64,000 nt of DNA from Hormiphora californensis (Eukaryota > Animalia > Ctenophora), in contig CM035360.1 in NCBI GenBank assembly GCA_020137815.1, positions 1,612,001 to 1,676,000 of the forward strand, written 5' to 3'. The position numbers and the translations under genes were made by a program. Every line of letters starts with the position of its first letter. The stretch's first letter is position 1. Shown here piece after piece: positions 1,710-62,049 of the stretch. The notes below the pieces were generated by a model, which worked only from the letters and a program-made list of their open reading frames with translations, was not told the DNA's origin and did no database searches.

Positions 1710-4700
1710 CTGTAGTAGCACATCTTGTACATCAGACTGTTATGCATGGCTTTTGAAGCGTCCTTATCCACCTTTGTATTCACCCGTACTGCTGTAGTAG
1801 TCGCTCTCTTTAATGTGTTCACCTGTAGAGAGATGATATTGATAAATTTAATTTAATGATTTATAATAATAATTTAGTTTATTTAGATAAATTCGGAATA
1901 AATTCAAGTGCTAATCAGTATTACTTAGCTTGTAAATTAAGGGATGCTGGTGACAGTTTTAACAAAACTACTCGTTTGGATTTGTAATCATTATATGTAT
2001 TACAAACATTCAGGAATCAGGGAGTGCTACTTAATTACTGCTAATTACCAACTAATTACTGCTAATTACCAACTAATTACTGCTAATTACCTTCAGGAGT
2101 ACTTCCCCCGATTCGAATCATCCAGAGGAACTTGTTAATATCATCGGAGCTGTACCCTGACATACCACCAAATATCACCAACACATAGTCCACATCCAGC
2201 TCCTGATCAAGAGGGTGGGGGGGGGGGGGTTGGTTGGTCATCCTATATTGGTGGGGGCCAGGGTTGGGTAACGGGGCCAGGGTTGGATAACAGGGCCAGG
2301 GTTGGGTAATGGGGCCAGGGTTGGGTAATGGGGCCAGGGTTGGGTAACGGGGCCAGGGTTGGGTAACGGGGCCAGGGTTGGATAACAGGGCCAGGGTTGG
2401 GTAATGGGGCCAGGGTTGGGTAACGGGGCCAGGGGTGGGTAACGGGGCCAGGGTTGGGTAACGGGGCCAGGGTGGGGTAACGGGGCCAGGGTTGGGTAAC
2501 GGGGCCAAGGTTGGGTAACGGGGCCAGGGTTGGGTAACGGGGCCAGGGTTGGGTAACGTAACGGGGGGTTGGTTGGTCAAGAGATGCATGGAAGAGGGGG
2601 GGGGGTTTGGGTTGGTGGTCAAGAGATGCATGGAAGAGGGTGAGGGGATATCATTACTTTTAGTGCCAGTGGGGGGAGAGAGAAACGAGTTCAGTATCTC
2701 AGATCGTATTGACAATTCACAACACCGCAAATTCCAGTTATGTAGGTACGCAGCATTTACTCCCGTTTACTAATACATATATCGATCCGAGAGGTGTATT
2801 AATTTTGCCAACCCTGTTATATCATTGGTTCGTGACCCCGCCCTGTTATTGACGTCACACGGTACATGACCAACGAGCCAATCACGTGAGCACTATTGTT
2901 GTACTTTAATCAATCTTGAATTAAAGTCGGATTTCACATGTACGGTCATTTTGGGGTGACAACTTCAAAAAATCCGACTTTACTAAGGAACCTTGGAACT
3001 TTCGAGCAATCCACGCTCTCTCTTACCCTTAGATAAAGTATCAATCTCACCTGCTCTCTCTTACTCTTAGTTAAAGTAACAATCTCACCTACTCTCCCTT
3101 AGTTAAAGTAACAATCTCACCTTCATAATAGTATAGCTGTGATCCTCCGGACTTGCCATTGCTTGTCCAACTCGGGAAATGTGAGTGTTATTCCAGGTAT
3201 TGTTGTCCACTATAATGGTCCTGAAAACACACATGAGTGTGTTAATTAATTAATTAATTAATAGTTAATTAATAGTTAATAACTAGGGTACTTACTACTT
3301 GTGTAAATAACGAATTGTGAGAAGAATTACTTTCATCTTGAATAATTTGGTAAAGTAAGCAATGTATGTTAAATTGTACACAACAAATTCGCTTATTTTG
3401 CCAAAGTAGTGTTTTGAAATTGTAGCCGTTTGTAACCAATAAATTCTGGCTCATCAAAAGTATATCATTTACCACCCTCCCTGCTTTGTAGATCGGGCAG
3501 TATAAACGTAAGTCGTAGCGAATCAGCTAGCCTTGGTGGGTGGCTTTATATATGCGGAGTTTGATTTGAGTATACATACTCAAATCAAACTCGGCATATA
3601 AAGCCACCCACCAAGTTATTTGTACATGTAGGAATCAAATAACTGGTTAAGAATTTTATGACTTCGGAAGTGGTAAACAGTTATCTAGGTTATGATTGAT
3701 CATACTATTAAGTACTTCCCTGAGGTTAAGAATTGTATGACTTCGGAAGGAATCCCTACTTACATACCAACAACCTCCATACCAACATCCCCCATACCAC
3801 ATAGGTATGGAGGGTGTTGGTATGGAAGCGTTTTGTGAGGTTCAGTGACCTCCATACCAACTCATAGATTATATTTAGAGAGTTGGTATGGAGGGTATTA
3901 AAGTCTCTATAACGCTTCCATACCAACTCGATGCAGCCATACCAACTTGTGAAAATCCTTGATATCTGGGTGTATGGTACTGCCAATTAGAGCTGTCCCG
4001 ATGTACGATTCAATTACACGATTCATATCACGATACGGTATTCAAGTGGCTTCGCTTTGGGTGGGGTGTGCCTTTCACGTACTGAGTGTGTTTAGTTTAA
4101 TGCAATACAAACATAAGATATTACAGGAACTATGTCTTGACTTTACTACAACGGACGAAGCGATAATCCTCCATACATCCACCCATACATCCACCCACTG
4201 GCCACTATAGCCATTCTGATCTCCCCGACTGTCCTCGAGTCATCAGAAATGTGCTCCTCAACCTCTCTCTTCTAATCTTCCTGATTCCCACTTCTTCCAA
4301 AATCCCTCCACGTCGGAGACACTTCAAGATCCGGCACGATACCCAGGACAGCGATGCCTCTCGCATCTGACTCTGTGTTCGGTACCAATAAGGATTAAGG
4401 GTACCTGCACTGGGTATCGTGTATGTCGGTTGGAGTAAGACTGAGTTACTGGGGTCTCGCCTATATTTTCCATCAAGGCTAGCATGAAAATACTATCAGA
4501 ATTATAGACCAATTATAAACCTCCCCTTGCAGCTTGCTCCATCTTTCCTGGTCTTGGTGTCCCTGTAATAGGTGTCTATACCGTGTTACCCAGCCACTGA
4601 AAACTATGGTGCTCCTATAATAGTGGCCTACATTTACTGTTGGTGACATGGACACATGTGCAAGATCGAAGTCAATTTGTGGAAATATACAGGGTGTCCC

Positions 4701-6854
4701 ACTGTCTTTGCGTGACCTGCGATTACTGGTCATGACCGGGTTCCGTCAAATTAATCAAAACTTATCGAAAAATTGGTCAAAATGGTTCTAACAAAAACCA
4801 GTGTTCTAGAGAATTGTCTGGCGAACATCTTAGTTGCAAGATTGACTTTCCAAGTCTTACCAATCGTCAGATATATCGTCGTAAAGTCAAAATTACGTGT
4901 TCATGAAATCCGACCGGGGTTCACGTTTTGAAAAATTCACAAATGCAAAGTTGCTCGGATCACATTGCATTCCTCATAAGAGTTGTGGGAAATTGTCTGG
5001 CGGTCATTTTGGTACCCGGTTTTTTGTCCTAGCTCAATGTTTAGAGTGTCTTATGACTGTCTAAAGACGAAATTCAACCAGCATTTTTGAGGGGATCACG
5101 TGTCATCAACAAATGGGTAAAATGATTTGAAATTTACAAGAGCTTCATTGGAATCGTCTAAGGTTCATTTTGATACCATGGTCTTTTCCATAGCTCTACG
5201 TTTAAGTTGCGTTATGACTGTAGGAACATGAAGATTTTTCTATGCTGAGCCTTAGTTGGTATCGGCTCACAACCCCTAATTAGGTGGCTCGGTGTCGTGT
5301 GTAATCCCATGATAATCAGCACATATCGTCTCAATTTCATCTAGACACTTGACAGGGTTGTTATGACGATTTGGCAAGGCCCCTGTTAATGTGTAGGATA
5401 CGCAAGTGGTCTATCTCAACCCTATCATGCACTAAGATGTTATTCAAGCAGCTATGAGCTTCATAACAGGGCAAAATGCAATGCGATACCTGAGAGCACT
5501 TTTGGGAAAATCCCAGTTCTGACAGTCATAAGACACTCTAAACATTGAGCTAGGATAAAAACCCGGGTACCAAAATGACCGCCAGACAATTTCCTACAAC
5601 TCTTATGAGGAATGCAATGTGATCCGAGCAACTTTGCATTTGTGAATTTTTCAAAACGTGAACCCCGGTCGGATTTCATGAACACGTAATTTTGACTTTA
5701 CGACGATATATCTGACGATTGGTAAGACTTGGAAAGTCAATCTTGCAACTAAGATGTTCGCCAGACAATTCTCTAGAACACTGGTTTTTGTTAGAACCAT
5801 TTTAGTAGTATAGTGTGGACAGTTGGGACCCCTTTTTCGCTCGAATATGTCACCTCCAAATATGGGCATGTCACGTGACACACGTGATGTCATATGACAT
5901 CACGTGACATCACATGACGTCATATGATGTCACGTGATTATGACGTCATGGTGTGACCTTTGTGACGTCACTAGCGCTGACAAGGGATCAGCGGGGTTTG
6001 AACTCGCTACCTTTGTAACAAAAGCCAATCTCTTAGACCATGCGGCCACCGTGCGGCATTAGATCATCACATTTGAGACCTTTTTAAATGCTATAACTTC
6101 ACAATAAGTCCACAGTGATTCTTGCTCCGTTCCTACCCTGTTATTCACTGTTATCTGGTGTTTCTCGTGTGTTCCAAGTATTACAAGAACACATAGAAAC
6201 AGCGAAAGAACACCCAAGAATAAAAATTTGTGGGTTCTCCGATTGCGCTGTAAACTCTATTAATCGAATTAAACATTGAATTTGTAAATAAAAACTTCAA
6301 GAATATCTGTACACATCAAAACGTATGCAAACAATGGTCTCAACCACCCATTTCGAAGAATGTCTTGATTCGCGTGCTATTTCAACTAAATCATCTCTTT
6401 CGATTTCATTCTTTACTTTCATTATATCGTCTTGATCTGCTATGACTTGTGCTGTTTCGAACACCATTGTATTGTTAGATGGATGGAAAAACTTTAATTC
6501 ATCCGTTTCAGTGTTCCTTAATATGTAACCAAAAGCTACATTGACTTTTACAGGTTTTTTGTAATATTTCAGTACTCCACCGAGTTTCCCGGGAATGCTA
6601 TCATAAGGGGAGATTGGAAAATGATACATATCCTTGAGAATCCCTTTCTTGACACTGTGCTTGATGGTTTTCCAGTTTTTGCGATAAAGCGGCTTTACTG
6701 AATCGCCTACGTTCTTCAGAAAATCATCCATGATGGAAATGAAACGGTTCTAAATCTCACTTGTATTTATAGCTAGTGAGAAACTACCTGTAACTACCGC
6801 ATAATTTTAAGTTCTCGCGATATGCTATTAGCAGTCAAGATTATAGTATACCAA

Positions 6855-6888
<34 letters not shown>

Positions 6889-9800
6889 CTCTCTCCCTCA
6901 ATTTCTTTTGGAGACCCCTTATTTATTTAGTGGATGATCCCTTGTTTATACAGATAGAATCTACACTCGAGTTCACTGTATATCTATTTGAGTGCCACCT
7001 TTAGTCCCATGTTCCGCTGATACCTTTCACTCTCTCTCTATCTCTATGTCTCTCTCTCTTATAGTCCACTTTTTTCTAGACAATATGTTATTATTGACAC
7101 ATTCCCGCAAACTTACACTACATCACGTGAACTAGTTTATTCCTAATTTGGCTAGCAAATATCAACAGGTGTCCTCATGGTACCGGAGTCCAGTGCTTTA
7201 GTTACCTTTCTTCATACGTGTGCTCAGTGAGTAACTGGAACAGCTCACACTGCAGCTGTACAGTTGATGTTGCTTGAAAGTCTGAATTCCGGGTGCTATG
7301 ACGCTATGTGCCATATTTCTGTTGCTGTGCTCTATACTGAATAAATGTACAGATACCAGTTTATACTTTGCAGAGCAGAGCTCAGGCTTGACTTTGGAAC
7401 TTATCTTATTTGTCCTTTATTCTTACTGGTATTGACATCTAACCGTGATGCTTACATGACTTTTCACATACATTGCTTTAGATAGTTACGATTGCGGACC
7501 TAAAGCTTCTTCATGTCATAGTATAGAGAGTCTTATAATCGACAACAGCTGAGGATGGCGAGACGGCTCTATCTCCTTTTATTTCTGGGAGTTTTCTTTG
7601 TTCAACCTCAACTATCTCATTTCTTAAATTTAAAGCGAAAGGTGAGATTATGTGACTAATAAATAAACTAATTGTATTGCTATGTAGGATATATTCAAGT
7701 TTATTGTAAGATAAATTTCACTTAAAGTGAGTTTTCTTCTTCAGGGCGATGATGAAGATGATGAAAGGCCTGGACCTTCTTCCTCTCACCACCATGTAAG
7801 CAAGTAGTCTTCAATAAAATTATCCCTATTCAATTTTACCATCAAAGATTCAGTCAAAACAAGATCTACCTTGACTGTTTGTGGTGTACCTCGATCTATA
7901 AGATATAGTAGTTAATGTGTTTTTTTTTCTTTCTTCAGTCCAGCGGCTGTGGAAATGCTGAACCATCAAATGTCAAATCTGTAAGTCCTAGTTCAATATT
8001 TTTGTAAGTTGATTCACGTCCAAACGACGAGCTTCATTCAAACAAGAACCAACTTTCATTTCAGGGGAAACATCGGGCTGTGACCTGCCCACTGTGTGAT
8101 AATACTATCCGGGCGTCACAGCTGGAAAATCACAAAGGAGGGCGCAAGTGCGTTAAGCAGTGTGAAATTTGCACTCGAAGAGTTCCCGGCAAAGACTATA
8201 AGGCTCACAGAGACGAACATCTCATACAGATTCAGCACAGTTTCTCTCACTCTCAACCCAGTCCGACCTCTCCGTTCCAAGCCGTTCAAGTAGATCCAGA
8301 GCTTGAATTGATTTACAAAGAGCACCCTGTTATCCAAACGAGCGTTAAAATAGGCAGGGTAATGGATGTATACAATGTTCAAGTAGATCACCTGAACACT
8401 GGAGAGCTATTAAATTGCTTCAAAAAAGTCTACAGGCATCAAAGAAACGCTTTTAAGCTCCAAATTTCGCTGGGAGTCATCCTGAAACATCAAAGAACTG
8501 GTGAACTTGCCTATTATCGTCCTTCCCAAAATAACCAGCTACTTTTGGACTCTCCAACACTGATAAAAAATTCTGAGGATAAGAGGGCTTTTATTAATTT
8601 GTTAGAAGGAATTGACCTTGAAAAATCCATTAGGCGCCCCTCTACTGAATGGTCTGCAGTTAAAGTGACCAATGTTAGCTTCTACGTGTTTCGACTGAAA
8701 GGTACTGCTATCGGAGGTGGTGTTGAGCTACCAGACCACTTGCTACGGAACAAAGGACTGATTTCTTTAGTGACTTCTAGGAAGACTGGAAAGCCCTATA
8801 GCGATCAGAAATGCTTCTTCCGGTGTCTCGCTCTGCACCAAGGTTCAGACCCTCAGTCGCTTGAAAAGAAGACCAATCAGCTCGTGAAAGAATATTGTAA
8901 CAAGGCATCTATAAAGACAAAGCAGTTTAACGGAGTCTCTCTAGATCAACTTGAGGACGTTTCACGACTTTTTGGAGTAGGAATTATTGTCTATGAGCAA
9001 GATGAGGATAGATCCACGTCTACAGTGTGGCGCTCCATCACCGAAGATAATGCCATGCACGTGAACCTGTTCCAAACTCATTTCAGCTTTGTCCAAGATC
9101 TTGAGAAGTTTTCATCTTCATACAGATGTCTACAATGCGACAAGTTTTTCGACCACCATGGTCACTATAAGAGGCACACGAAAACCTGTGACATGAATGT
9201 GAGAGAAAAGTACGTGGGCGGTACATTTAGTGTGAAACCCACAGTCTTCGATGAGCTAGAGGACTTTGGAGTGGACATACCATCGGAACTACGCCCTTAT
9301 CCTTATCGAGCTGTGTTTGATATTGAGTGCATGCTGACAAAGGAGGTAGACATTGCTGAAACAGATAGGACAAGCTACGTTAACCGTCATCAGTTGGTCT
9401 CCATCTCCGTGAGTTCTAATGTGCCGGAGTTTCAAACCCCAAGATGCTTCGTCCTCAACACACCTGATGGGCAAAAGACCTTAGTCTCAGAGTTCCTGGA
9501 GTACCTTAGGAAAATCAGTGATGCTGCAGCCTGTAGAGTAGGGGAACTGTACCAGGAGTACAACATTGCTGAGGTTGAGGACGATAAAATACAGTCACGA
9601 TGGGAAAATCACGTATCCCAGCTGCCTGTACTTGCATTCAACGGGGCCAAATACGACCTAAATGTTCTACGAGAGTTTCTGTTCCCAATCCTGGCAAAAG
9701 AAGATTCAGTCAGATTCATGATCAAGAAGGGCAGCAGTTACATGGCAATTTGCACAGATCAACTAAAATTCCTGGATATGATCAACTACGTGGCTCCTGG

Positions 9801-12800
9801 TTATTCGCTCGAAAAATTTACCAAAGCTTATGGTGCTAAGGATCGAAAAAGCTTCTTTCCGTATGAATACTTGGACTGTTTCGACAAATTGAAGGTAAAG
9901 AAGTTCCCGAAGTACCAGGATTTCTTCTCGTCGCTAAAGGGAAAAGTGTCACTTGAGCCTAATGTTGGGGAGAGCCTCTCGGATTTAGAGGTCCAGTACA
10001 TCGGTAGACAGCCCAGTAAAGATGATCCGATTTCTTTGAAGGAGATTAGTGAGTTGGGTCAGTTCCGGTATCACCAGCTGAAAGACATGTTTGAAAGGAA
10101 CAAGTGGTGTGTTCGGGACTACCTTATCTACTATAACAATTTGGATACTACTTCGTTTTTGGAGGCCATCGAGAACTTGGTTCAGTACTACAACGCTAGG
10201 GGAGTGGATGTGTTCAAGGATGCTTTATCAGGTAAATTGCTAACGGATATTATCTCGCATAGTAAATAATCAAATATTTTACTAAAATTACTAATAATCC
10301 GTTATAGTTCCTGGGATCGCAGAACGGATTGCCTTCAAGGGGCTGAATAATCGGGATGAGACCTTCCACCTTTTCAACGGAAAAAATAAGGACCTCGTAC
10401 ATCTATTTCTATCAAACAATGTTGGCGGTCCAGCTATCATTTTTGATCGATACCAGGAAGCAGGTATTTGAGATACAGTCAGAACCCGATTTAGTGACCC
10501 CCGATTTAGTGACACCCCGATTTAGTGACATGATAAATTTCCCCCGATATTGCAAATTAACGGTATTTGACCCCGATTTAGTGGCCACCCCGATTTAGTG
10601 ACCAAAACCCTTTCCCCCGAGGATGTCACTAAATCGGGGTCCGACTGTACTCCCAACATTCTACTCTAACTCTCCTAACTAGATTTATACTAACTTCTCC
10701 AAACTCAGATGTAACCAAAATACGCCATGATGATAACGGAAAACTCTGCAAGAAGGTGCTTGGTTTGGATGCCAACGCCCTTTATCTGGGTAAGATCCTC
10801 GGTCAATTTTTTTTGGGTGCTATCAAGCGCCGTAAATTCAATCACTTCTTGAAACGAGTGTTTGCTTTCTCGATTCAAAACTGAAGATAGTATTGTCTGA
10901 TAAATTTCAGCCAGTTACAGCTCAGGATTTAAGCTGCATGCTCGGCTCAAAACCGTAAGAGCCACTGAATAAACACACATGTGTTAGTAACAGACGTAAA
11001 TATTTTTCCAACAGAATGCATGTCGAGGGAAATGCCATGTGGGATGTTCCTAAGACGACGAGCACCAGACTTCATTCTAGAGTACCCTAGCTACACCTCA
11101 AAAGTGGCTATTGAATGGTTAAGCTGGGTAGAAGAAGACCAGGGTATAGAGATCCAACATGCCAAAAACAGCGGTGAGGTGAGGATTGGACCAAGAAAAA
11201 TTCCAGTTGATGGCTTTCACAGGTAATCACATCAACACGCATCTGATCATGTGATTTGATTTCTATATAGCTACCTTTTGCACGCACATTAAATAAAGAG
11301 CTTTGGAATCAGAATAATTATCACAATAATACCGTTAATCAGGATAAAAGTGATTATCTTAGACTAATAATCCATTTCAGAGAGTCCAAAACAGTGTACC
11401 AATTCCACGGTTGCTGGTTTCATGGATGTAGAGAGTGCTTCCCAGACAATCGTGATGTAGAGAAGTCTGGTAGAAAATCCCATGATTTCAACTTCAACAG
11501 AACTCAGAAGGTCACTACCGAACTGGAGAGTCTCGGCTATACAGTAAGTTTTGTACACATGTTACTGTAAGGACAAAGACCGTAGCATCTAATTCAATGT
11601 TCAATCCTATTTTCAGCTGGTTGAAATGTGGGAGTGTGACTGGAAGGAGAGAAGGAAATCCGTTCAGCTGTCAACAAAGCATCTTTACCCCTTCGAGGCG
11701 TCATATCGTCTGACGGAAAAGCAGATTTTGGCTGCTATTCAGAAAGGAGAGATGTTTGGTGCAGCTGAAGTTGACATCAACGTACCCGATAATTTAAAGG
11801 ATAGGTATGAGAAATTCAGCCCCCTAGTAATATCGATCCATTAGACAATCTAATTAAACTTGTTTTAAAATGGTCCAATAGCTAGAATATTTCAGGTTCA
11901 GTGAGATGACTCCAATATTCAAAAATGTGGTGATTACAGAGGATGACATAGGCGAATATATGAGAGATTACATCCGGGAGACTGGGGAGAAGTTCAAGGA
12001 TCGGCGCAACCTAATAGGTTCAATGTTCGCAGAAAAAATTCTCTTGGTCACTCCTCTTCTCAAGTGGTACTTGGACAACGGTTTAGTCGTCACTAAGCTT
12101 CACCAGTTTGTTCAATTCCGACCTGTACGCTGTTTCAAGTCATTTGCAGACAACGTCTCCAATGATCGACGTGCAGGTAAGATATTCAGCACATTTTCTC
12201 ATCTTTATTCTACTTTTGAAGATTATATAAACTTATTTTTAATGAACCTACGCTTTAGGGGATGTAGATCCGAGCAAAGCCATCATTGCGGAGACGTCAA
12301 AGTTAATTGGCAACAGCGTATACGGCCACAGCATCATGCGCAAAGACCGTCATACATCCGTTAAACTCGTTGATCTAGAGAAAGCTAGCAAGTTGGTGAA
12401 TGATCCTCTAATGGTCAGCCTGGAAGAGATGGAAGAGGAGACATTCGAGGTACAATTTTGATGAATAATTGTGACTATATACACAATTATGTATTATTTA
12501 CTTGTTATGGAATAATATTCCACTATCCCCAAGGTTGTTAGTAAAAAGAGAAGAGTGACGTATGATCTACCAGTACATCTCGGCTTCTTTGTCTATTCTC
12601 TGGCAAAGCTGAAAATGCTGAAATTTTATTATGATGTACTCGATCGCTTCATTGATAGAAGTAATTTTGCCCTTCTAGAGATGGATACTGGTGAGAATTA
12701 TATTGGAACTCACCGCCGTAGACGGCTCTCTGCAGCTGAGAACTATCTACGATGGGAAAAATAGACGTGTGGTGATATAAAAAGTTATAATAACTTCTGT

Positions 12801-15800
12801 TTTTCTAGCTTTATTTATTAGAATTTCAAGTGATATAACATTTCAGATAGTTTGTACCTCGCTTTGGCAGGCGACTCTCTGGATGATATTGTGAAACCCG
12901 AGCTCAAAGGAGAGTGGACGGAGATCAAAAAGGAATGGTTTCCGAGGCCTCACAACAAAGCTTACGACAAGAGAACACCTGGTAAGTTCTCTCATTTCAC
13001 TCTTTTCTTTCTATAATAAGCAGATTTTAGACAATTCACAATCATTTATCGAAAATTAAAATTCCTCAGGGTTATTTAAAGTCGAGTATGAAGGGGAGGC
13101 ATTTATCGGGCTCAACGCAAAGTCTTATTTTTGCAAAGGGGACCAGATAAAATATAGTTCAAAAGGAGTGTCTCATACAAATAATCTCTCGTTTGAAGAC
13201 TACAGATCCGTCTTATTGAAACAACCAGTGAAAGATCAGCTCAATCGAGGATTTAGGATGAAAAAGGGAACAATGCACACATACTCTGTCACAAAATCGG
13301 GTCTTAACCACATTTATGTGAAGAGAAAGGTGCTGGAAGATGGGCTTAGGACGACCTATCTAGACATTTGAGAGCTACATCATTATATTTTAGCATGAAC
13401 GACGACTGATTATACAGCTATCGGGATTTATTTAGATATATATTTTCTAATTTATTTTCGAGAAAGTCATAAAACAACTGATTTTATTTTAAAAGAAATA
13501 TACAAATTTAATTATCATATTCTAGACTTGAAATTAGCGATAGCGTTCTCCCAATAATTTGGAATATATTATAAAAGTCTTTGGAGTGATTTAAAAGTAA
13601 CAGTTTGATTTCTTCTAGGCTTTTGCAATCCACCACTCTGATAAGTTTTCTGCCTTTTGCATTTAGACGCTTTTTCTGGGATACGACTAGAGGTACAGCT
13701 CCATATTTTAAGCCAGTAAAAAGATTTTTAATTGCTTTAAGAAGTTTATTGCTACGTGCAATAGATTTAAAACTTTTCAAATCAATCAGTTGTTGTAGTT
13801 CCAAGTAGTTCCGTATACTTTTAGCATTGATTATTGTATCCGAAAACTCATTAAATTTGGTATCATTAAAGTTGGTCCTGAATTCATCGAGTTGTTTTTC
13901 AAACAAATGAATTCTTTCAAGATGTTGCTTTGATTCATTGAGTTTCGATTTGTATAGTCTCTCGTATTTTCGAGCTTGACTATCTCGTTTCTGGTATAGC
14001 GTCTTAAAGTCAATATCAGTCAATGGATCAAATTTTTTCTCGGATTCTTCCTTTTCATCATCAGTTTCATTCACTTCCTCCTTATCTAGAGACGTCTCGA
14101 TTTCCTCATTGTCATCAACTGAGTCATCACCAACTGGCCCCCACTTTTCATGATCATATTTTTCATGTTGAAGAAGATGATAAACTGTTTCGAATTTCAG
14201 GTCACAAACATTGCAGGAATACATTTTTGCGGAAATAAACTTAATAAAAATAGTTCTCCTTTTATACTCGTCACTGTTCCTCGATCAATTTTACTGTTCG
14301 TCTTTGTTCCTACAAGTCGGACAATTCTCTTCCTCTTCTGGGAACACCTTTTCTATGATATCTTCCACTGTTTCTAGATTTTCTTGCAAAAGTTCACGAA
14401 TCACGATCAAAGATTCGTTATCCTTTATCGCATTTATTAGAAGTTCCTCTTCTGGTGTCAGCTCAATCTCTGAAAAATCTGCATTAATTAGATCATTTTT
14501 GAGACCAAAACACTTCAATAGGCTCGAGTATGTCTTTTCATCTTCACTTTCTGGTGAGTCAATCTCATCATCAGACAATTCAGATAATTCCTCAGGCTCA
14601 GAATCCTGGTCAGACTCTGAATCCTCATTCCGCTTTTTATCATCCAAGCGTAGAGCTTTCAGAAACGATCTTGAATTAGACATGATTGGAAATGATAATC
14701 ATGGAAAACATCCCCCTTTTATAGTGTTCCCGGGTGTTCTCTCTATGTTCCGACGTGTTTTTTTAAAAAGCTCTTTTGTTCCTCGGTGTTCCTCGGTGTT
14801 CCTTTCAGGAACCCTTTGATTCCTTGCTGTTCTTTCGATTACATGTTTATTCCTAGGTGTTTCTAACCGTTCTAACGTGTTCTTATGATGTTCCTGTGTG
14901 TTCCCGTGATGCCTGGAACAAGCGAGAAACACCAGATAACGGTGAATAACAGAGTAGGAACACTAGAAATAGATTGCATCACCAAGGAACTGCTAGGAAC
15001 ACCCATAGAGCATACGGAGAATAGACTAGGAACACTTGGAACGATTTTAAGATTCCTATAATTAACAAGGAATAGCTAGGAATGGCTAGGAACGGCTAAA
15101 ACACAGCCAATGTCGCTTGCCAGCTCTAAGCAGTCATTTTAGGTGGTACTGTACAATCTATGTACTGTAGGAATAGCTAGAATATCAATTATCAGGGGAC
15201 TTATTGTGAAGTTATAGCATTTAAAAAGGTCTCAAATGTGATGATCTAATGCCGCACGGTGGCCGCATGGTCTAAGAGATTGGCTTTTGTTACAAAGGTA
15301 GCGAGTTCAAACCCCGCTGATCCCTTGTCAGCGCTAGTGACGTCACAAAGGTCACACCATGACGTCATAATCACGTGACATCATATGACGTCATGTGATG
15401 TCACGTGATGTCATATGACATCACGTGTGTCACGTGACATGCCCATATTTGGAGGTGACATATTCGAGCGAAAAAGGGGTCCCAACTGTCCACACTATAC
15501 TACTCATTTTGACCAATTTTTCGATGAGTTTTGGTTAGTTTAATGGAGCCCGGTCATGACCCAAAATCTCAGGTCACGCAAAGACAGTGGGACACCCTGT
15601 ATTACCACCATACCATCACGAGTACCAACACCCTCATACTGCACTCAACTCAACCTTATAAGGTCTAAACCCTAAACCCCTCGGCCCTCCTAAACCTCCA
15701 TCTAGACCACATAAACATCACCCCTCAAATCTGAACAGAAATAAATCACGTACATACTCATACACCGTCTTCGTACTAACAACTCTTTCACCCTGAATCC

Positions 15801-17360
15801 TCACTCAGTTTGGTTTGTATGGCTGGTTTGAGGTTTCAGGTTTGCTTACTTGCTTTTTATTATGCAAGTATGTAGTTATGTACATACTATATCTTGGTGA
15901 TTTACTTCTGTTCAGATTTGATGGGTGATGTTTAGGATGGGTTTAGGTGGTTTAGATGGAGGTTTCGGAGGGGTTTGGGGTTTAGACCCTAAAGGGTTGA
16001 GTGTGGCATGAGGGTGTTGGTACTACCAACTTCTCTTGTGATAGAGGTAGTGACAAGATGCAATACGTATTACAACACGTATTCCACTAGGCTGAACCGC
16101 CGATAGAAAAACCTGGCATAAAAGGTTACTTGCACAGTGCACCAGCTGTATCGGTAAGAGCTACATCGGAGCCACATTCCTAGGCCACTGTAATAGGAAT
16201 TGTTGGCCGTTGGTTGACGGTAAGACACAGACCACAGTGATATCTTACGTTTGTATTGCATTAAACTAAACACACACAGTACGTGAAAGGCACACCCCAC
16301 CCAAAGCTAAGCCACTTGAATTCCGTATCGTGATATATGAATCGTGTAATTGAATCGTACATCGGGACAGCTCTAATTGGCAGTACCATACACCCAGATA
16401 TCAAGGATTTTCACAAGTTGGTATGGCTGCATCGAGTTGGTATGGAAGCGTTATAGAGACTTTAATACCCTCCATACCAACTCTCTAAATATAATCTATG
16501 AGTTGGTATGGAGGTCACTGAACCTCACAAAACGCTTCCATACCAACACCCTCCATACCTATGTGGTATGGGGGATGTTGGTATGGAGGTTGTTGGTATG
16601 TAAGTGTGGAACCCTTCGGAAGGGGTAAACAGTTATCTAAGTTATGATTGATCATACTATTAATTTTATGACTTCGGAAGGGGTAAACAGTTATCTAGGT
16701 TATGATTGATCATACTATTAATTACTTCCCTAAGGCGAGACTAATCATATCGGGTTATAAAAGTAATTTGTATTAACTATCAATCGTCTGACAAAGTACG
16801 ATTGTATAGAGGGAAAGATAGAGGGAGATAGAGAAAGATAATTTGAAGGATCACTGCGCTGGCACCTTTCCAGCCAACTAATTTCTGTTAGTTTTTGGCA
16901 TAATAAATAGGGTGGGCGGACTCTAGTGCTAACGGACTCTATATCTAAACCCAAGGAGGACTCTATATCTAACCCTAACCTTTACACTAACCCCTCACCT
17001 CGAACCCAAATAACAGCCCTAACACTTCTAAACGAGTATAGAGGCACAGCAAACTCTCGTTTCCGGCCTAACGGCCGAAATCTCGAGTTCGCTTTTCGTG
17101 ATTTTAGCACTAGAGTCCGCTCACCAATAAATAGATAGGACCTGTAAAGAACTGTTTGACCAATGAAGTAAAGCCATTTCGACAGGTTACAGATTTGTAC
17201 TAAATTGTAATGTGGCTGAATCACCAAATTTAAACCAGAATCTTTGACATCTCGATTTAAAATATCTGCATCAATCATGCAGCATGACGGCCCACTTCAT
17301 TGATGATTTTGATAAATCTGGAAAAAGTTTTTTTTGGTGTGGGTTTCTGCTGGAAAGAAA

Positions 17361-22809: not shown

Positions 22810-25800
22810 GTTGCGAAAAATTTCGCCAGTCCTTGGCATCTATAACGTAAAAAGGTTCTAGAAAAAAGATTGAGGAAATCTTACCATACATGTTACTACT
22901 TTATTGGACACGGTGCTCCTGAAGGACGGTCAACCTCGACCAGAGCCCCTAGCCAAACCACCGGTTGTGTGACCTAGAGGGGACCTCTGGGAACCGTGGA
23001 GGCTGGAGCACCGGTTAGAAAAATATATGGCTGGGGCCTTAGCCGGAAAATTGATAGAACGATAGCTATCGTTTTTTTCACTTGAACAATACGACCTTTT
23101 CAAAAAATATTCCTTGATCAGCAAGATATAGTGTACCCCCACCTATTTTTTGACGTAGAATCGAATGCCGTTGAAGTCAAATCTCTAAAATGTTGGAAAA
23201 ATGGTGAAAATAGCGTTTTTAGGTGTTTTTTGGTGAAAAAAGCGTTCAAACTGGTACTAGATGATGAGATACAGTCCCAAAAGTATGACAAATCGCTTTT
23301 TTGGGACCTTTTCGCCCTAGAAGCAGATTTTTATGAAAATCTGGTACAGCGCCTATTCTCCGTATACTTTCAAAGAAGGTGAATATTGGTCTAATTTAGC
23401 CAATTTTGAAGAAAAGTCATCCAAAACAGTACTAGATGATGAGATAGGGTCCCAAAAATATGTCTAAGCAATTTTTTGGGTCTTTTTCGCCCTAGAAATA
23501 AATTTGCATGGCGGTCGGATGATATGTTTCCTCTCGGTAGGCCTCTGAAGTAGGTGGAAATAGCCAAAATATAACGATTGCGGCAAATGAATGTGAATAA
23601 ACGTGTACCAAACCCACTTTAGCATCATGTATGACCTATCTCTGGGCTACTGGACTATGCAAGAGCCATACATGATGCTTAAATGGGTTTGGTACACGTT
23701 TATTCACATTCATTTGCCGCAATCGCTATATTTTGACTATTTCCACCTACTTCACAGGCCTACCGAGAGGAAACATATCATCCGACCGCCATGCAAATTT
23801 GTTTTTAGGACGAAAAAGGCCCAAAAAATCGATTAGTTTTATTTTTGGGACACTATCTCATCATCTAGTGCTGTTTTGGATGACTTTTCTTCAAAATTGG
23901 CTAAATTAGAGCAATATTCACCTTCTTTGAAAGTATACGGAGAATAGGCGCTGTACCAGATTTTCATAAAAATCTGCTTCTAGGGCCAAAAGGTCCCAAA
24001 AAAGCGATTTGTCATACTTTTGGGACTGTATCTCATCATCTAGTACCAGTTTGAACGCTTTTTTCACAAAAAAACACCTAAAAACGCGATTTTCACCATT
24101 TTTCCAACATTTTAGAGATTTGACTTCAACGGCATTCGATTCTACGTCAAAAAATAGGTGGGGGTACACTATATCTTGCTGATCAAGGAATTATTTTTGA
24201 AAAGGTCGTATTGTTCAAGTGAAAAAAACGATAGCTATCGTTCTATCAATTTTCCGGCTAAGGCCCCAGCCATATATTTTTCTAACCGGTGCTCCACGGT
24301 TCCCAGAGGTCCCCTCTAGGTCACACAACCGGTGGTTTGGCTAGGGGCTCTGGTCGAGGTTGACCGTCCTTCAGGAGCACCGTGTGGACCTAATATAAGA
24401 GCTGTACTCCACCCCTATAATTGATTTTCTCTCGTATTCCCGTTCCTTTCTCACTTTTAAAATTCAAGGTGGTCGACGACTTCCGTGGAAGTTCATTTTT
24501 TCTTTTAATGCATTTAATGGATGATGGATGATGCAGCATTCTATTAAAGCAAATGATAAATTGATTTCTCCTGCGGGAATGTTATATTTCAATTAAATTG
24601 ATAGATCCCCTCCTTCTGATATATACATGTTTAGCTCTATAGAGTTCTGGGGAACCATTTCAAAATGATCAATATATTGATCATACTTTTGAAAGGGTAG
24701 GGTATTATCTCTACTTTGATGTATTGTGGGTGGCCGGGTTAAATAGCTAGTTCTGTGGTATACTACCACCTGTTTAATGATAAGGCACCGCTAGCTAGGA
24801 GCATTTAGACTCGACACAAGTTGCATACCATGATAGGGGCATTTAGACTAGAGATAAATATACAGCTCGACGCAAGTTGCATACCACCCTAGTACCATGA
24901 TATATGGTTAAATATCTAGTTCTTATCTGTGGTTTACCATGATAAGGTATCGCCAGCTAGAGGCATTTAGACATCGCCAGCTAGGGGGATTTAGACTAGC
25001 GTTAAATAAAGCTCGACATGAGTTGCATACCACCGCTTGTACCATGATAGAAACCACCCTAGGGTTGAGGGTTAGCTCGTCTCTGGCTGTTGTTCATTCT
25101 GGCCTGTGCTGCTGGCTCCTGATTGGCTCTCACATCAACCAATCAGAGCTGCCGCCCCGCCTGCAGTATTTAAATAGCCGGATTTTCAGTCTACGAACCA
25201 CTTCAACTTCATCATCAAGTCATGCTTCCATCGTATGCCTGTTTGAGCTCTTAGCTTGGTTAGGGCTTTTGTCAACAAGCTATTGGGGAGTGGAGACGGT
25301 CCCTAGCCGATACTTTTTCAAGCTGAATCTAAAGAAATCAATGCCACAGATCACCTAACATGTATTTAACCCTGTCACGGCCGTGCTTGGAGCGCAGTAG
25401 CCGGAGACGAGCTAACCTTCAACCCCACTGTGACTAAATCACCCCTATAACGCTCGCGTTGAGGGATAATTACCTTACTTTGTCGAAACTTTATTGCTCT
25501 GGACTTCAGAGTTTGTCGCATTCTTGGCGTTTATTGTTTCCTGTTTTCCCCGTTTTCTCAGTTCAAACACCACAGTTCGGAGTCTGATCTGGCTAGATTA
25601 CATTGTGTTCAGGAACCGATCGGACCAAGTAAACAACCAATCAGAACTCGTTATTTAGGTCACGTGACTGGTTATCAGCCAATCAGGGACCAGTATTTCC
25701 TGATTCGGTCGGTTCCTGTTACATTGTAATCAATAAACTAACCCAGTTACAGTTGTAGCATGTTGTTATCTCCCTTGGCAACGATGGACTGGGAATATCT

Positions 25801-27360
25801 TAGGAAGAATGGGACACTCAATGACACTGTTAACAATGAAACAGCCCAGCAGCAATTCGCTACGGACAGCCTCTATATATATGTGAGTTTTCTCGTTTTC
25901 TAATCACAAGAAAATCACCCTCATTTTCGAACTTTTAGGTTAGATGAGATTTTCCAACCCATTTCCCCCGTTGCAGTTCAGTACGTCCTTTAGTATACCC
26001 TACAACGGGAGCTACGACCGGCTCATGGCGGGGTGTCTCCTCTTCTGCATGGTATACGGGATGATAACCAACACCCTCACCACCACCTTCCTAGCCAAGG
26101 AGCTCCGGAGAATGATCAATAACTCCAGGAGATCCCACACCCAGGGGTTCTTCTACTGTTTCTACCTCATCACATCGATTGTAGACCTAGTGATTAGTAC
26201 AACTGCCTTCCCCGTGGCACTCTCCCTGGCGTTCAATAGGGAACCTGTCCTGTTCGCTAACACTGCGTTTTGCACCTTCTGGGCATTACTCTGGGAGGCT
26301 CTTCCCTTCCTCTCGGTGTTTCTAATCGCCCTTGTAGCAGTGGGCCGTGCCATGACCCTCTTATGGCCATTAGCGGCTGTATCCCGAATAAAACGAGTGT
26401 TCCTCGGTGTGATGTGTTTCTATACTGTGTTCCTGGTCGTCAGTAAGGTGGTTCCGATCTGTTTAAAGTGGGACAAGGGCGGCTGGCACCGTGGTAATCC
26501 ATATCACAAGGACTATCTAGCTCACGGGCACTATAACAAGGATTCGGTGTACTGTTTCGTGTACCCACATGACGTTTACTGGAAGATCAACTCGGTCCAA
26601 TCAGCGGTCCAGTTTGGCCTTCCCGCCATTATTATCCCGGTAGCCAGTGTCACGTGTATTACAGTCATTCTCCGACTGAAGAACACTTGCAAGGCCCTTC
26701 AAATCAAACGGAAAAGTTTCAAGAAGACCTCCACACTGACCGTCCTGATTTTCTGTACAGCCTACATGCTCTGCAACATCCCGGTGTTCATAAATTACAT
26801 CATGTATTCTCGGGTGTGGTTATCTAACATTGCATACGCTAAACTATTCAATACTCCCTACCTGTATTGGTACAGTTGGAGCTTGACTTATGTTGTTAGC
26901 ACATGTGTTAACTCGTGTGTTAACCCTACTATTCTAGTTTCAAGGCTTCCTAAGTTGCGGCAATGGCTGTGGAATCAGTTACTGAAGCAGCCCATTGAGA
27001 TTATTAGTAAGACTTTCTCAAGAACTGTATAGCATGTCTCGAACACCTTATCAGCATTATCTTGAACTCACACCCTAGATCCTATGTGTGGGGGGTCATT
27101 GGCGAGGATAGGAGTGAGGTCAGACCGGACAAAAATATTTGCGTTTATTTCGAAAGTTTATAACCACACGACTCACGAGGCTATCTTTTTATTTAAATTT
27201 TATCGAACTGTATTTATCCAACTACGAAAAAGAAAGAATCAAATTTGTAGGGGTTGGCACGGTTCATATAAATATTTCATTTATTTGTTGTTTGTTTCCT
27301 ATTTCATTCAGCTGCGCTGCTCATTGTAAAAAATAGTTTTCATTTTTTAACGAAAACTAT

Positions 27361-27422
<62 letters not shown>

Positions 27423-30400
27423 TGAATATTAACTCACGATGCAGTAAGCAACGTAGATACGATGAGAGAACCGGCCGGTAATCATCAGAGTCAGTACGTG
27501 TAGGGGAATCAGGTTGATGAGGAACACGTATCCACCCCAGCTAGAAACCTGGAGGAAGTAGAATATTAACAATGGTAATATTGCCCGAGCTAGAACAATT
27601 TGTTGAGTACTACTCGACAAAGAACAATATCAATAGTGTCATCAGGAAAGGGGGACTGAACAAGAAGGGCCAGGGCAGCAAGGAATATTCAGTACAAAAA
27701 CACATGTTTTTAGCCCCCTAGCTCCACAGGATTTAAAGACATGTGTGTCTTCCAATTCACCACGTAACATGCTGCAAGACCTCCAAAACGGGGGGGGAGT
27801 TTGTTACTTTAACTAAGAGAACAAAGACTAACAATGTCCGCCGCATCTAAGTGCCAACTGCTACGTACCATGTAAAAGTAGGCGAGAGCACATGAGAGAC
27901 TCCAGCAGATAGAACCAGTTTTAGAAGCCTTGATCCATGTGTAGTAGGTTAGCAGCATACAGAAGATGGCGATACCTGCCAGGTAGTGAATTGTTCTGAA
28001 TCTTCTGAATCTTCTACTACAGTTTAGTAGAGTCGATAACTACATCGACCTCTCCCAATTGTTCCAGTTTTTGTCACATCTGTTTGGAGCCTCGACACGA
28101 CCTCTAAACAGGTGTTACTTTTTCACAAACTGTTTTCATCTTGGTGTAATCAGCAGTTGAAATTTTGCTGATCATAACAAAAACCTGACTAAATTTTTTC
28201 AACTTGGGGTAAAACCATGGGTGTCAAAAGTTAGCTCTAGGTCCCCTGAGTAACCATCCGGAGACTCTAAGAGATATTTCAAGCCGTTCTCCCGTAATCA
28301 TTAATCCCGGTGGAGAAAAAAATACAATGCGGACGTACGTGAGCGCTGGCAGGCTGTTTACATGTTATTGTATGTCTCTCACTCTCTCTGGAAAAACCGC
28401 ACGTGCCGTTGCGCCGCGCGAGATAACTCTTTCTCAAGGGGGAGAAAAGAGAGAGACGCACATTAACGTTATACATTAAAGTTGAGGTTGTAGGCAATTG
28501 CACGTACGTCCATACTCAAATATGTGCTCTACCGGGATTAATGATTACAGGAGAACGGCTTGAAATATCTCTTGGAGTCTCCGGATGGTTCTATCTATCT
28601 ACGGAGTGCCTGGGCTTGCCAACGGCAAGCCCACATGGGACTATCGCAAAGCGATATCGCCGGCACTAGGAGAATAGCCCCCCTCCCCTCCCCCACCATC
28701 AGGAACTGCCCACAGGACAGGTTCGCATTATAGGTGGCTTCGGGTTCGGGAGGCTAAACTCCTTCGAGAGTCGCAGAATCTTGATTCTTCTTCCCTATTA
28801 GTCTTGGATCTTTGGCTCTGTCTCCCTGCGACAGGTGGGGATGAGTTATACTAATCTTTCTCTTGGTTCTTGAGTTTATTTGCTTTCTCGATTAGCTTGA
28901 TGGCTACCGTGGTGTGATATATTATCGTTTTGCCTAGATCTTTGTACGAAGTTTTGCCGCTTAGTCTCATTCTCTCCGTTTCCAGGATTTCACATTCACA
29001 GATTAGGTGTTTCGCATTTTCTTCTGTTTTAGAGCATAGACTACATATGTCTGTATTCGATTTTCCAATCTTCTTGAGGTAGTAGTTGAACGGCCCTATA
29101 TTTGTGATGAGATGTAGTATGGTTCTATACTTTTTCCTTTGGTTTGCGTACAGTGTCATCTTTTTTGATAGTGAGTTCCATGTTGATTCATTCGTTACTA
29201 GGGTTCTTGTGTGTTTCCCTCCATTTATTAGAAATTGGTTCATGGTTTTTGTTTTGGCTATTTTCGTCGTAGAATTTTTAATATAGCTGTGTGGGATTGG
29301 TATTTGTCTGGTTTCACTGATTGGTTTGCTGCATCCTTCTATGAAACCCGATAGCTGATATAACAGTCGCTTGAAGAATTTGCGCGCACATGATAACCGC
29401 CAGCTGGGAGATTTAACACCCTCCTCGCAGTTTGACAGACCAGTTCCCTATTTCACGCGTTTCTCTTCATTTGAATAACATGCGTGTAAAATTCTAAGTA
29501 TTGAAAATGTGTGTAAACACACAATTCTGTCAACAAAAGAAAGGGGAAACATGTCTGCAACACGTTTCAATGTTATCTCTCTCATAAGGAGTGAAAAGAA
29601 TCACATTCCATTCATTTCTCTCTCTCATTGTCTCTTTTACTGTTCACTACCTCTGACAGTGTGTATTGCCCCTAATCTTTCTCTCTCTTTCTCAAACATG
29701 TTAGGAACAGTAGACACTAAGTCTACACACATTTTCAGGGTATCTGTTGACTATTTACCAGCAGTTCTAGTGTGTTTCACCTTGTGTTGTGTCTCTTATT
29801 TGTGTGTAATTACTATCGGGTTTCATAAAATATGAACGTTTGTTAGCCTATCGCGTTATAGGTTTAAATCACCTCCCCCTCACCCTCGGCTGGCGCCTCG
29901 GGATCGGCGTCGGGATTTAAACCAGTTTAATCGCCCTGCCGGGCGATTAAACTCCAGTTGGCTGTCCCCAGCTCGCGCTGGGAACAGCCAACTTCATAAC
30001 GCGCCAGTCTACAAACGTTCATACTTCATTTGGCAAGTTGGTCAGCTATCTCATTACCTTGGATGCCGATATGTGCTTTGACCCATTTTATTTTCACCGT
30101 ATTGTTTTGTGCTAGTTGGTTGAGTTCCGCGTTGCATTCCTTAATTGTTAAGGAGTCGGAGGTCAGTTTACTTAGTGCACTTATGCTGGCGGCTGAATCT
30201 GATCTGATGTGGATGTGGTGATTTCGTGTCCCATTGTTGTTTAGTTCCTCTGCTGCTCTTTTAATTGCTGTTACTTCGGCTTGGAAGACTGTGCTATAAT
30301 TTGGTAATCTTTCTGAGATATCGATTTCTTGTGTAAGCACTGTGGATTTTGAGTGTGCTCCTAGCCCCGTTTGGTTAGCTTCGTTTTTCGATCCATCCGT

Positions 30401-40013: not shown

Positions 40014-50827
<10,814 letters not shown>

Positions 50828-61843: not shown

Positions 61844-61952
61844 AATGTACGAAGAGGATAGTCGATGTTGCTGAACGAGAATTGAATTGATTTTGACTGT
61901 GGTTTACTGTGGTTTATATATACTAGCCGAGAGAGAGAGAGAGAGAAAGAGA

Positions 61953-62019
<67 letters not shown>

Positions 62020-62049
62020 TATCTATGTGACAGGTAGATATGTCACATT

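Follow-up and report, generated by a model that had tools for sequence, protein, structure and literature searches.

A comb jelly Polinton with ten or more, probably thirteen, predicted host-type introns in its pPolB gene

A Polinton/Maverick-type element of Hormiphora californensis carries a pPolB gene in which at least ten introns of host type, and probably thirteen, are recognised from the sequence. The element lies within the window, i.e. the whole 64,000-nucleotide stretch of DNA that was analysed. The reading we prefer, with a probability of roughly 0.6, is a compact Polinton whose intron-split pPolB is spliced by the host, and which is copied from its TIR ends and reinserted by a borrowed integrase. 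For an element of a type usually called intron-free, reliance on host splicing is likely very ancient and has gone along with continued mobility.

The pPolB gene runs from an ATG at 7555 to a stop codon ending at 13371 and consists of 14 exons and 13 introns. The features that carry the argument are as follows.

7555-7641, forward strand: exon 1, predicted hydrophobic leader, weakly supported
7642-7744, forward strand: intron 1, predicted
7745-7795, forward strand: exon 2, predicted, acidic, with a PGPS motif
7796-7938, forward strand: intron 2, predicted
7939-7980, forward strand: exon 3, predicted, without homology support
7981-8064, forward strand: intron 3, predicted
8065-10231, forward strand: exon 4 (2167 bp), zinc-finger-like region, TP domain, vOTU-like Cys/His, Exo I-III
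10232-10307, forward strand: intron 4, phase 1, shared with relatives (spliced alignment, clade comparison)
10464-10708, forward strand: intron 5, phase 1, shared, containing a TA-flanked 172-bp MITE at 10476-10647
10790-11014, forward strand: intron 6, phase 1, shared, directly after polymerase motif A
11223-11380, forward strand: intron 7, phase 2, shared, Vsr-like insert, in 6/6 covering clade loci
11544-11616, forward strand: intron 8, phase 0, private, absent from 6/6 covering clade loci
11805-11895, forward strand: intron 9, phase 2, private, absent from 7/7 clade loci
12177-12258, forward strand: intron 10, phase 1, common to L047, L037 and 12 ORF-called fragments
12450-12533, forward strand: intron 11, phase 0, shared
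12691-12846, forward strand: intron 12, phase 1, in the second Asp codon of motif C (DTDS), common to L042, L047, L036 and six fragments
12982-13069, forward strand: intron 13, phase 1, common to L042 and L047
13070-13371, forward strand: exon 14, with the stop codon

Recomputing the model reproduced the stop-free 1402-aa frame and the thirteen GT-AG introns of 73-245 bp of the original prediction: the coding length is 4209 nt (1402 codons plus stop), with no stop inside the frame or at the junction codons. Removal of the introns restores the frame, and all 13 have GT..AG ends and pyrimidine-rich 3' ends, as in U2-type introns. Retention would introduce in-frame stops for 12 of the 13 introns and a frameshift for intron 10. 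The introns have a GC content of 0.24-0.39 (0.44 for the MITE-bearing intron 5) versus 0.37-0.51 for the exons. The described layout, with ten introns in the polymerase half and one 2167-bp exon (exon 4) over the N-terminal and exonuclease regions, was found again. Two placements relative to the codons were refined: intron 12 does interrupt the DTDS motif, but inside the second Asp codon and not between T and D (MDT|DS), and intron 6 does follow DANALYL, but within the next codon and not directly.

Introns 4-13 were all recovered by a spliced aligner blind to the model using P0002 as reference, and the same ten were obtained with P0003, P0076 and P0104 (four references in total); with two of the latter three, one extra intron was called in exon 4 at the start of the truncated reference, at a different place each time. 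No indel was present at junctions 4-11 against 8/8 homologs, nor at junctions 12-13 against the 6/8 homologs that reach them. In-frame protein inserts near reference positions 1187-1215 are also called as introns by the aligner and were filtered out, with a filter that additionally drops two true-looking clade introns. Introns 1-3 are predicted by analogy only and are weakly supported. Exons 1-3 gave no alignment to any of the 8 homologs, and a hydrophobic first exon was not found upstream in L042. The locus L047 has the same layout of three phase-0 5' introns and shares a short exon 2 motif, whose score was reached by 2 of 2000 shuffles (28 of 2000 for the comparison with Mnemiopsis), and all three listed differences in exon 1 fall on third codon positions. 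A 2A/StopGo signal is defined by the motif DxExNPGP; this reading of the leader was rejected, as PGP is present and the full motif is missing. In two RNA-type runs no contig crosses any junction: in X13, coverage is confined to exons, with three contigs that could derive from DNA, and X15 contributes a short match to exon 9 and otherwise just ends of related elements.

The identity of the protein follows from its homology to relatives that carry the Pfam polymerase family (PF03175), together with its motifs and its TP profile. Pfam DNA_pol_B_2 itself gave no match on the window exons or on the relatives P0001, P0002 and P0030, and a PDB sequence search gave no match. Exon 4 encodes vOTU-like Cys/His motifs (8803, 9073) and Exo I-III (9313, 9634, 10129), named in part after PMC11161782. 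The catalytic motifs are intact, and 23 of the 33 best-supported coding differences from other samples (532 more rows exist) are synonymous, where 27% would be expected; all listed indels inside the gene fall within introns. The pPolB gene is under purifying selection.

The boundaries of the element (9,701 bp, 5804-15504) were set in the follow-up analysis and are flanked as follows.

5798-5803, no strand: left TSD copy, 6 bp; a single copy is present at the matching site in the host transposon's other arm
5804-6111, forward strand: left TIR, 308 bp, with an AG end; carries the palindromes TGACGTCA and TCACGTGA, three of each
15197-15504, reverse strand: right TIR, 308 bp, identical to the left TIR
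15505-15510, no strand: right TSD copy, 6 bp, completing the pair

The TIRs are perfect 308-bp inverted repeats, long as in Polintons, and the TSD has the 6 bp typical of Polintons/Mavericks, whose TIRs end in AG...CT. The element sits within an arm of another transposon; the empty site is recoverable, and empty-site joints were found in runs X5 and X10. The insertion is young, as indicated by its perfect TIRs, 6-bp TSD and empty site, which supports the suggestion that the lineage is still mobile. In Mnemiopsis and Bolinopsis, several near-identical pPolB loci are found on different chromosomes.

Three further genes, all intact, lie in the element.

6297-6731, reverse strand: ORF-A, 144 aa, putative free-standing TP/D1-like gene, paralog of the exon 4 TP domain
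13508-14224, reverse strand: ORF-B, 238 aa, with a C2H2 finger, an acidic stretch and a coiled region
14291-14683, reverse strand: ORF-C, 130 aa, acidic, no family

ORF-A is 26% identical to exon 4 (E 2e-11) and scores 113 bits against a TP-domain profile built without window rows. Its predicted structure (pLDDT 85) matches the N-termini of adintovirus and bidnavirus pPolBs, and also Y-family little-finger domains (Z 6.0-6.2). On sequence and model grounds, the element carries a second, putatively free TP-like gene besides the TP domain fused in pPolB. The finger of ORF-B has a Pfam zf-C2H2 E of 0.008, below the cut-off; its C-terminus weakly resembles a small basic Polinton protein (E 0.06 with a 4-sequence profile, top of 745 window ORFs), and its Atlas scores were under 0.9. 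Integrase, ATPase, protease and both major and minor capsid genes gave no tblastn match in the element or in the 64-kb window, the queries being 524 locus ORFs plus the capsid domain of P0149 (for the integrase, the rve+chromo ORFs of L011, L026 and L038). Only 1.4 and 1.8 kb remain outside the pPolB gene and the TIRs. The element thus lacks the retrovirus-like integrase, packaging ATPase, maturation protease and capsids of an autonomous Polinton/Maverick.

Comparison with relatives indicates that the introns are old. The pPolB falls together with proteins from Mnemiopsis and Bolinopsis (support 100) in a clade of 11 out of 63 rows with an SH-aLRT of 100, and of 25 out of 118 rows in a larger tree (100/99). 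L037, L042, L045 and L047 are placed with comb jelly hosts from the tree only, and searches for related loci found none in viral contigs and none in a first metagenome scan. Of the ten introns in the polymerase half, eight (the DTDS intron among them) recur with identical codon position and phase in divergent relatives, where unrelated sequence fills them. The pPolBs of these relatives differ from the window protein to the same degree as the named comb jelly proteins do (~45-47% identity), which supports the proposed long co-evolution with the host nucleus. Sites 701, 750, 777, 847, 1121, 1173 and 1221 (P0002 numbering) are present in both the window and L042, and site 1074 in both L047 and L019/L036; these pairs span both sides of the clade's main split. 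The clade contains 17 sites in all, seven of which are seen in relatives and absent from the window gene. With eight sites shared, introns 8 and 9 private and seven others in relatives, the introns are old and turning over, which is compatible with mobility. Without its MITE, intron 5 measures 71 bp; introns 5 and 6 together are ~220 bp shorter in organism B, and the MITE is tolerated in intron 5. A skew towards the polymerase half (post hoc, P 4e-4 if introns were placed uniformly) marks the window gene but does not hold throughout, as L042 and L065 carry introns in the N-terminal half. Outside the clade, 13 of 73 loci carry one or two introns, so introns in Polinton pPolBs are not confined to this lineage.

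In the preferred reading, host RNA polymerase II would transcribe the pPolB gene and the host spliceosome would remove its introns constitutively. The TP-vOTU-Exo-Pol polyprotein would prime on a terminal protein, either its own fused domain or the free-standing ORF-A product, and the polymerase would likely copy the excised element from its inverted-repeat ends. A retrovirus-like integrase is likely supplied in trans by other Polintons as candidate helpers, none of which was seen; this is suggested because a 6-bp TSD is the mark of such an integrase, and three uninterrupted, integrase-linked pPolBs, from intronless Polintons, are recorded for comb jelly assemblies (supplement, PMC10748475). 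At least eight introns would already have been present in the clade ancestor, with gain and loss ongoing. Copying from DNA to DNA includes no reverse-transcription step to purge introns, which would allow them to accumulate over long nuclear residence. We tentatively consider a broader, less probable version: an ancient, unreported comb jelly Polinton lineage, spliced in the manner of host genes from a time before the main groups of comb jellies diverged, with at least eight ancestral pPolB introns and ongoing gain and loss (17 sites), whose compact satellites would keep replication genes only and borrow integrase and capsids from intronless Polintons. The small 5' exons would then encode an optional hydrophobic leader at the TP end that, after vOTU cleavage, may anchor the linear DNA under replication to a membrane, with the free TP copy serving as primer.

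The strongest competitor, though on balance improbable, accepts the introns as real and old and takes the 9.7-kb copy for a recent internal deletion of an autonomous, intron-rich Polinton with capsid and integrase, its genes intact because it is young. In the Mnemiopsis gene model P0149 a double-jelly-roll capsid domain (Atlas) follows the C-terminus of a pPolB from the same family, so the compact form could be such a deletion; in related elements (L011, L026, L038) the pPolB gene has integrase, ATPase, protease and capsid genes nearby, and perfect TIRs speak for youth. Yet the last pPolB exon likewise adjoins ORF-B in organism B (~93% identical), a second sample of organism A covers 30 of 30 element bins and organism B 29 of 30, none of the loose ends listed lies at an internal junction, and ORF-A, ORF-B and ORF-C are intact.

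It was also proposed that splicing gates polymerase activity. The regulated version, which we regard as unlikely, holds that the host or the element keeps one or more introns, such as that in DTDS, in most cells and that alternative 5' exons switch between leader-bearing and leaderless polymerases. The Drosophila P element is a precedent for gating by intron retention; retention of any intron would inactivate the protein, the DTDS site is kept across the clade, and the Mnemiopsis annotation gives one gene with isoforms of 1439 aa (leader) and 1325 aa (no leader). However, the splice sites are ordinary, seven other sites are equally kept, and sites differ among families. Moreover, 31 of 47 clade introns lie in AG|G, TG|G or AG|A contexts, as an insertion preference would produce. 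Retaining any of the introns would destroy the protein, and G|G-type insertion sites together with detection bias already lead one to expect introns within conserved motifs. The proposed gate is unsupported, and a special meaning of the DTDS position was rejected.

A domesticated host gene of Polinton origin that gained introns like any host gene would share the intron density and purifying selection seen here; this reading is already largely refuted by the identical 308-bp TIRs with TSD around the gene, its place in another transposon's arm, the existing empty site and the multi-locus relatives. Insertions in a decayed pseudogene with GT-AG ends by chance would agree with the missing RNA junctions and are scarcely credible given ten exact in-frame junctions, stop-free exons and the same sites holding unrelated sequence in divergent relatives.

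Animal Polintons/Mavericks (eupolintoviruses, adintoviruses) share the long TIRs, 6-bp TSD and TP-vOTU-Exo-Pol pPolB with our element (PMC11161782, PMC8097293), and the window pPolB is 32-38% identical to uninterrupted pPolBs. Intact vertebrate Polintons have 7-8 intronless ORFs, whereas the comb jelly element has 10-13 pPolB introns in 9.7 kb and no integrase, ATPase, protease or capsids. Polinton core genes are described as intronless in PMC8097293, and this pPolB departs from that description. Dinoflagellate eupolintoviral elements likewise contain spliceosomal-type introns (PMC12166617), introners that are repeated, mostly young and ~25% in coding regions. In contrast, the pPolB introns are unique sequences (one intron-intron match, 19 bp) at old shared positions in one core gene. 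An introner origin was rejected, no intron family being found in the gene, the window or the clade loci apart from the MITE in intron 5 and one family sampled three times. A free-standing TP gene also occurs in a Stylophora polinton and in adenoviruses (PMC11161782), where TP is split off pPolB, whereas the comb jelly element has a free TP-like gene plus a fused TP.

No main-text report of an intron-rich pPolB or of comb jelly Polintons was found; Repbase, most subscription papers and bioRxiv supplements lay outside the search and may mention multi-exon POLB. New here are the intron density and the shared ancestry of the sites; introns in pPolB as such are not unique. ORF-based surveys miss the gene, as had been foreseen, because its longest ORF has 753 aa and the element has no integrase. 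Loci entered the survey of Jeong et al. 2023 only with a tBLASTn match of 650 aa, an ORF of 900 aa and an integrase close by, and Bellas et al. 2023 used prokaryotic gene calling since endogenous viruses 'do not contain introns' (PMC10120064). A mobile comb jelly lineage thus falls through survey filters, and the range and age of Polintons are under-counted. The introns tie the element to nuclear transcription, which would make a cytoplasmic cycle dependent on giant viruses less likely for this lineage. With old, new and lost introns next to each other, a multi-copy, fast-evolving element that is copied without reverse transcription offers a tractable system for studying intron gain and loss, and the shared sites provide characters for testing vertical versus horizontal spread of Polintons.

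The pPolB gene (a DNA polymerase of family B that is primed by a protein) was modeled from an ATG at 7555 to a stop at 13371 with 14 exons and 4209 bases of coding sequence, equal to 1402 codons without an internal stop, interrupted by 13 GT-AG introns of 73-245 bp each. Retention would produce in-frame stops for 12 of the 13 introns and a frameshift for the remaining one. Homolog alignments were indel-free at junctions 4-11 in 8/8 rows and at junctions 12-13 in all 6 rows reaching them. A spliced aligner written for this analysis recovered introns 4-13 with a Mnemiopsis protein and also with three uninterrupted references from outside the comb jelly clade (the pPolB group holding the window, Mnemiopsis and Bolinopsis proteins and related loci), two of which gave one extra, inconsistent intron call at the truncated reference start. 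This support is independent of the gene model of the original prediction. The stop-free model with 13 introns and 1402 codons therefore holds and is independently supported for introns 4-13, while neither homolog alignment nor spliced aligner gave such support for introns 1-3. Intron 12, predicted to split MDT from DS, does fall within DTDS, where it interrupts the codon of the second aspartate in phase 1.

One oligo-dT metatranscriptome contained three contigs on pPolB exons and just beyond the stop, none of which spans any pPolB junction; since this RNA evidence is thin, we infer splicing rather than observe it. The idea that splicing gates polymerase activity found no support in this analysis. 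In exons 1 and 4, 23 of the 33 listed differences from other samples were synonymous (expected 27%), the list comprising the best-supported rows, with 532 more differences beyond them. The listed indels within the gene were located in introns. Intron 5 contains an inserted 172-bp MITE. In organism B (a source of sequencing-run contigs, ~93% identical), introns 5 and 6 with their surroundings span ~220 bp less.

The closest proteins were P0030, an EukProt gene model with 98% identity across exon 10, and those of Bolinopsis and Mnemiopsis, with 45-47% overall identity, which makes a comb jelly host very likely. Both of these species have several near-identical loci spread over different chromosomes. 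Placed in a pPolB tree, as originally suggested, the polymerase grouped with comb jelly proteins: one clade (SH-aLRT 100) united the window with the three named proteins and with seven loci from metagenomes among 63 rows, i.e. 48 spliced reads (the window and 47 loci picked by hand out of 80) and 15 proteins. A matching clade of 25 rows (support 100/99) appeared in a 118-row tree built after dropping 14 near-duplicates and short matches. Hosts of the metagenome loci were assigned from tree position only.

Spliced alignment of relatives, the comparison proposed for intron positions, bore fruit, as eight window sites recur at the same codon and phase. Metagenome locus L042 has 10 introns over its aligned length, 7 of them matching the window in codon and phase, and L047 has 9, of which 8 are common with the window; taken together, they carry introns 4, 5, 6, 7, 10, 11, 12 and 13. 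Within the clade, intron 8 is missing in 6/6 and intron 9 in 7/7 covering loci, and relatives have seven sites without window counterpart, giving 17 sites in total (L019, L036 and L040 counted as a single family). Same-site introns of different families are unrelated in sequence. The 21 ORF-called clade fragments agree with this: 12 of them break off where intron 10 sits and 8 at site 1074 (codon of the Mnemiopsis reference P0002), and six further clusters among 150 listed terminate at the intron-4 site. At DTDS, 6 of 103 scorable matches break off inside the motif and 97 continue through (17 unscored); five of these six are the closest ORF-called matches to Mnemiopsis. The clade's main split has eight intron sites in common to its two sides, and by parsimony at least 8 introns are therefore probably ancestral, the call of gain or loss at single sites depending on where the tree is rooted. 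The clade's introns are old and still changing. In L040, the motif A aspartate would be split by an intron called at reference 770, which lies seven codons ahead of the usual 777; sites 750 and 777 are missing in this family.

Of the 73 loci that lie outside the clade, 13 carry one or two credible polymerase-half introns, some of which may be frameshifts, mostly at two adjacent motif B sites; introns in animal pPolBs are thus recurrent. Among the loci examined, at least 8 introns per gene were seen in the comb jelly clade only.

Loci with introns at the motif B sites
Site 1073: L031, L032, L034, L041, L007, L080
Site 1074: L048, L057, L064, L065

Both sites recur in several animal Polinton clades, and 1074 in phase 1 also in the comb jelly clade, where it is either very old or a parallel gain. 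L065 has several additional introns in its TP/vOTU half.

At the 5' end, L047 has three phase-0 introns before its long exon, the same layout as the window. The leader encoded by the first exon of L047 is hydrophobic and clearly resembles that of a Mnemiopsis isoform (0/2000 shuffles); the Mnemiopsis annotation includes isoforms with and without leader. Window exon 1 is as hydrophobic, yet not alignable, and the match is confined to the exon-2 motif (score reached by 2/2000 shuffles against L047 and 28/2000 against Mnemiopsis). L042 yielded no such exon, and a hydrophobic start also occurs in 5 other long pPolBs among 92. The leader is a real lead, for the window copy a putative one. In P0081, a pPolB outside the clade, residues 1-30 comprise a hydrophobic stretch and, after it, a motif resembling canonical 2A/StopGo, which suggests possible ribosome skipping at the beginning of a Polinton polymerase.

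The gene lies in a Polinton/Maverick-type element of 9,701 bp, whose two 308-bp inverted repeats are identical and flanked by a 6-bp duplication. The element sits within the right arm of a second transposon with inverted repeats; the left arm of that transposon keeps the single target copy, and contigs from two sequencing runs bridge the empty site.

Features of the window (3741-16622 comprises three nested elements)
3741-4124 and 16237-16622: outer inverted-repeat pair, enclosing the TIR element
4687-15602: TIR element, one arm of which holds the Polinton-type element
5804-15504: Polinton-type element
5871-5970: repeated TIR palindromes TGACGTCA, TCACGTGA and TCATATGA, which we liken to ATF/CREB and E-box sites
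6129-6220: further imperfect inverted repeat, 92 bp, internal to the TIRs
23004-24296: 630-bp inverted repeat, arms 97% complementary, 33 bp spacing
25944-27032: presumed GPCR-like gene, single exon (translation by eye)
28851-31621: presumed non-LTR retroelement, RT and RNase H (by eye)
32902-33558: presumed STT3-like exon with MITE of the intron-5 family (by eye)
40265-49014: presumed Src-family kinase exons (by eye)
42480-43589: presumed LINE ORF1-like gene (by eye)
54900-56600: tandem array, 42-bp unit
61900-63000: G/A/T low-complexity runs, resembling poor-quality sequence

Beside pPolB, the minus strand of the element carries three short ORFs. One of them, ORF-A (144 aa), is paralogous to the exon 4 N-terminal domain (113 bits to the profile of that domain); its predicted fold (pLDDT 85) matched adintovirus and bidnavirus pPolB N-termini (1 match with E below 0.001) as well as Y-family little-finger domains at a middling Z of 6.0-6.2. 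Krupovic et al., in the portion consulted, compare polinton TP domains to the latter (PMC11161782). In L038 (4574-5362) and L039 (4559-5362) the TP domain is a separate ORF upstream of the vOTU-polymerase ORF, which may be a division as in Stylophora or else a frameshift. Domain, structure-atlas and profile searches assigned no firm family to ORF-B and ORF-C, and integrase, ATPase, protease and capsid ORFs of related elements had no match in the element or the 64-kb window. The ends, target duplication and polymerase are those of a Polinton, while integrase and virion genes are missing and the polymerase gene is not intronless; we therefore class the element as a non-autonomous variant derived from a Polinton rather than as an autonomous one.

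The integrated element would be transcribed and spliced by the host, and its polyprotein, with the TP, vOTU, exonuclease and polymerase layout described in part of PMC11161782, would start at the ends of the excised linear element and copy it, with fused or free TP as primer. Reinsertion would require a retrovirus-like integrase from outside, as implied by the 6-bp duplication and by none being encoded in the element; uninterrupted, integrase-linked pPolBs, found in 2 of 4 comb jelly assemblies according to the section consulted of PMC10748475, are candidate helpers. One Mnemiopsis gene model places a capsid gene after a pPolB of the clade's family, so autonomous intron-rich members probably exist. 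The same model would fit the compact 9.7-kb form being a recent deletion of a longer autonomous element, which we consider unlikely; against it, the final exon continues into ORF-B in organism B too.

Introns were not seen in intact vertebrate Polintons (Barreat and Katzourakis, PMC8097293) and are assumed absent by Bellas et al. (PMC10120064), in the parts covered, in contrast to the window pPolB. The nearest case in the published portions seen, introners in dinoflagellate eupolintoviruses, is young and repeated (PMC12166617). The covered sections of PMC8502044, PMC11071296, PMC11131425, PMC5718144 and 10.64898/2026.10.13.758929 yielded nothing on spliceosomal introns in pPolB, and a literature search, with the founding 2006 paper and Repbase outside it, returned no report of a comb jelly intron-rich lineage. 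The original prediction that ORF-based searches miss this lineage agrees with the filters of Jeong et al., as far as described in the part consulted, which would exclude the window gene. The observation is real, correctly described and more than a one-off: this Polinton lineage is deep, mobile and rich in introns, its intron turnover can be measured, and it escapes standard surveys.
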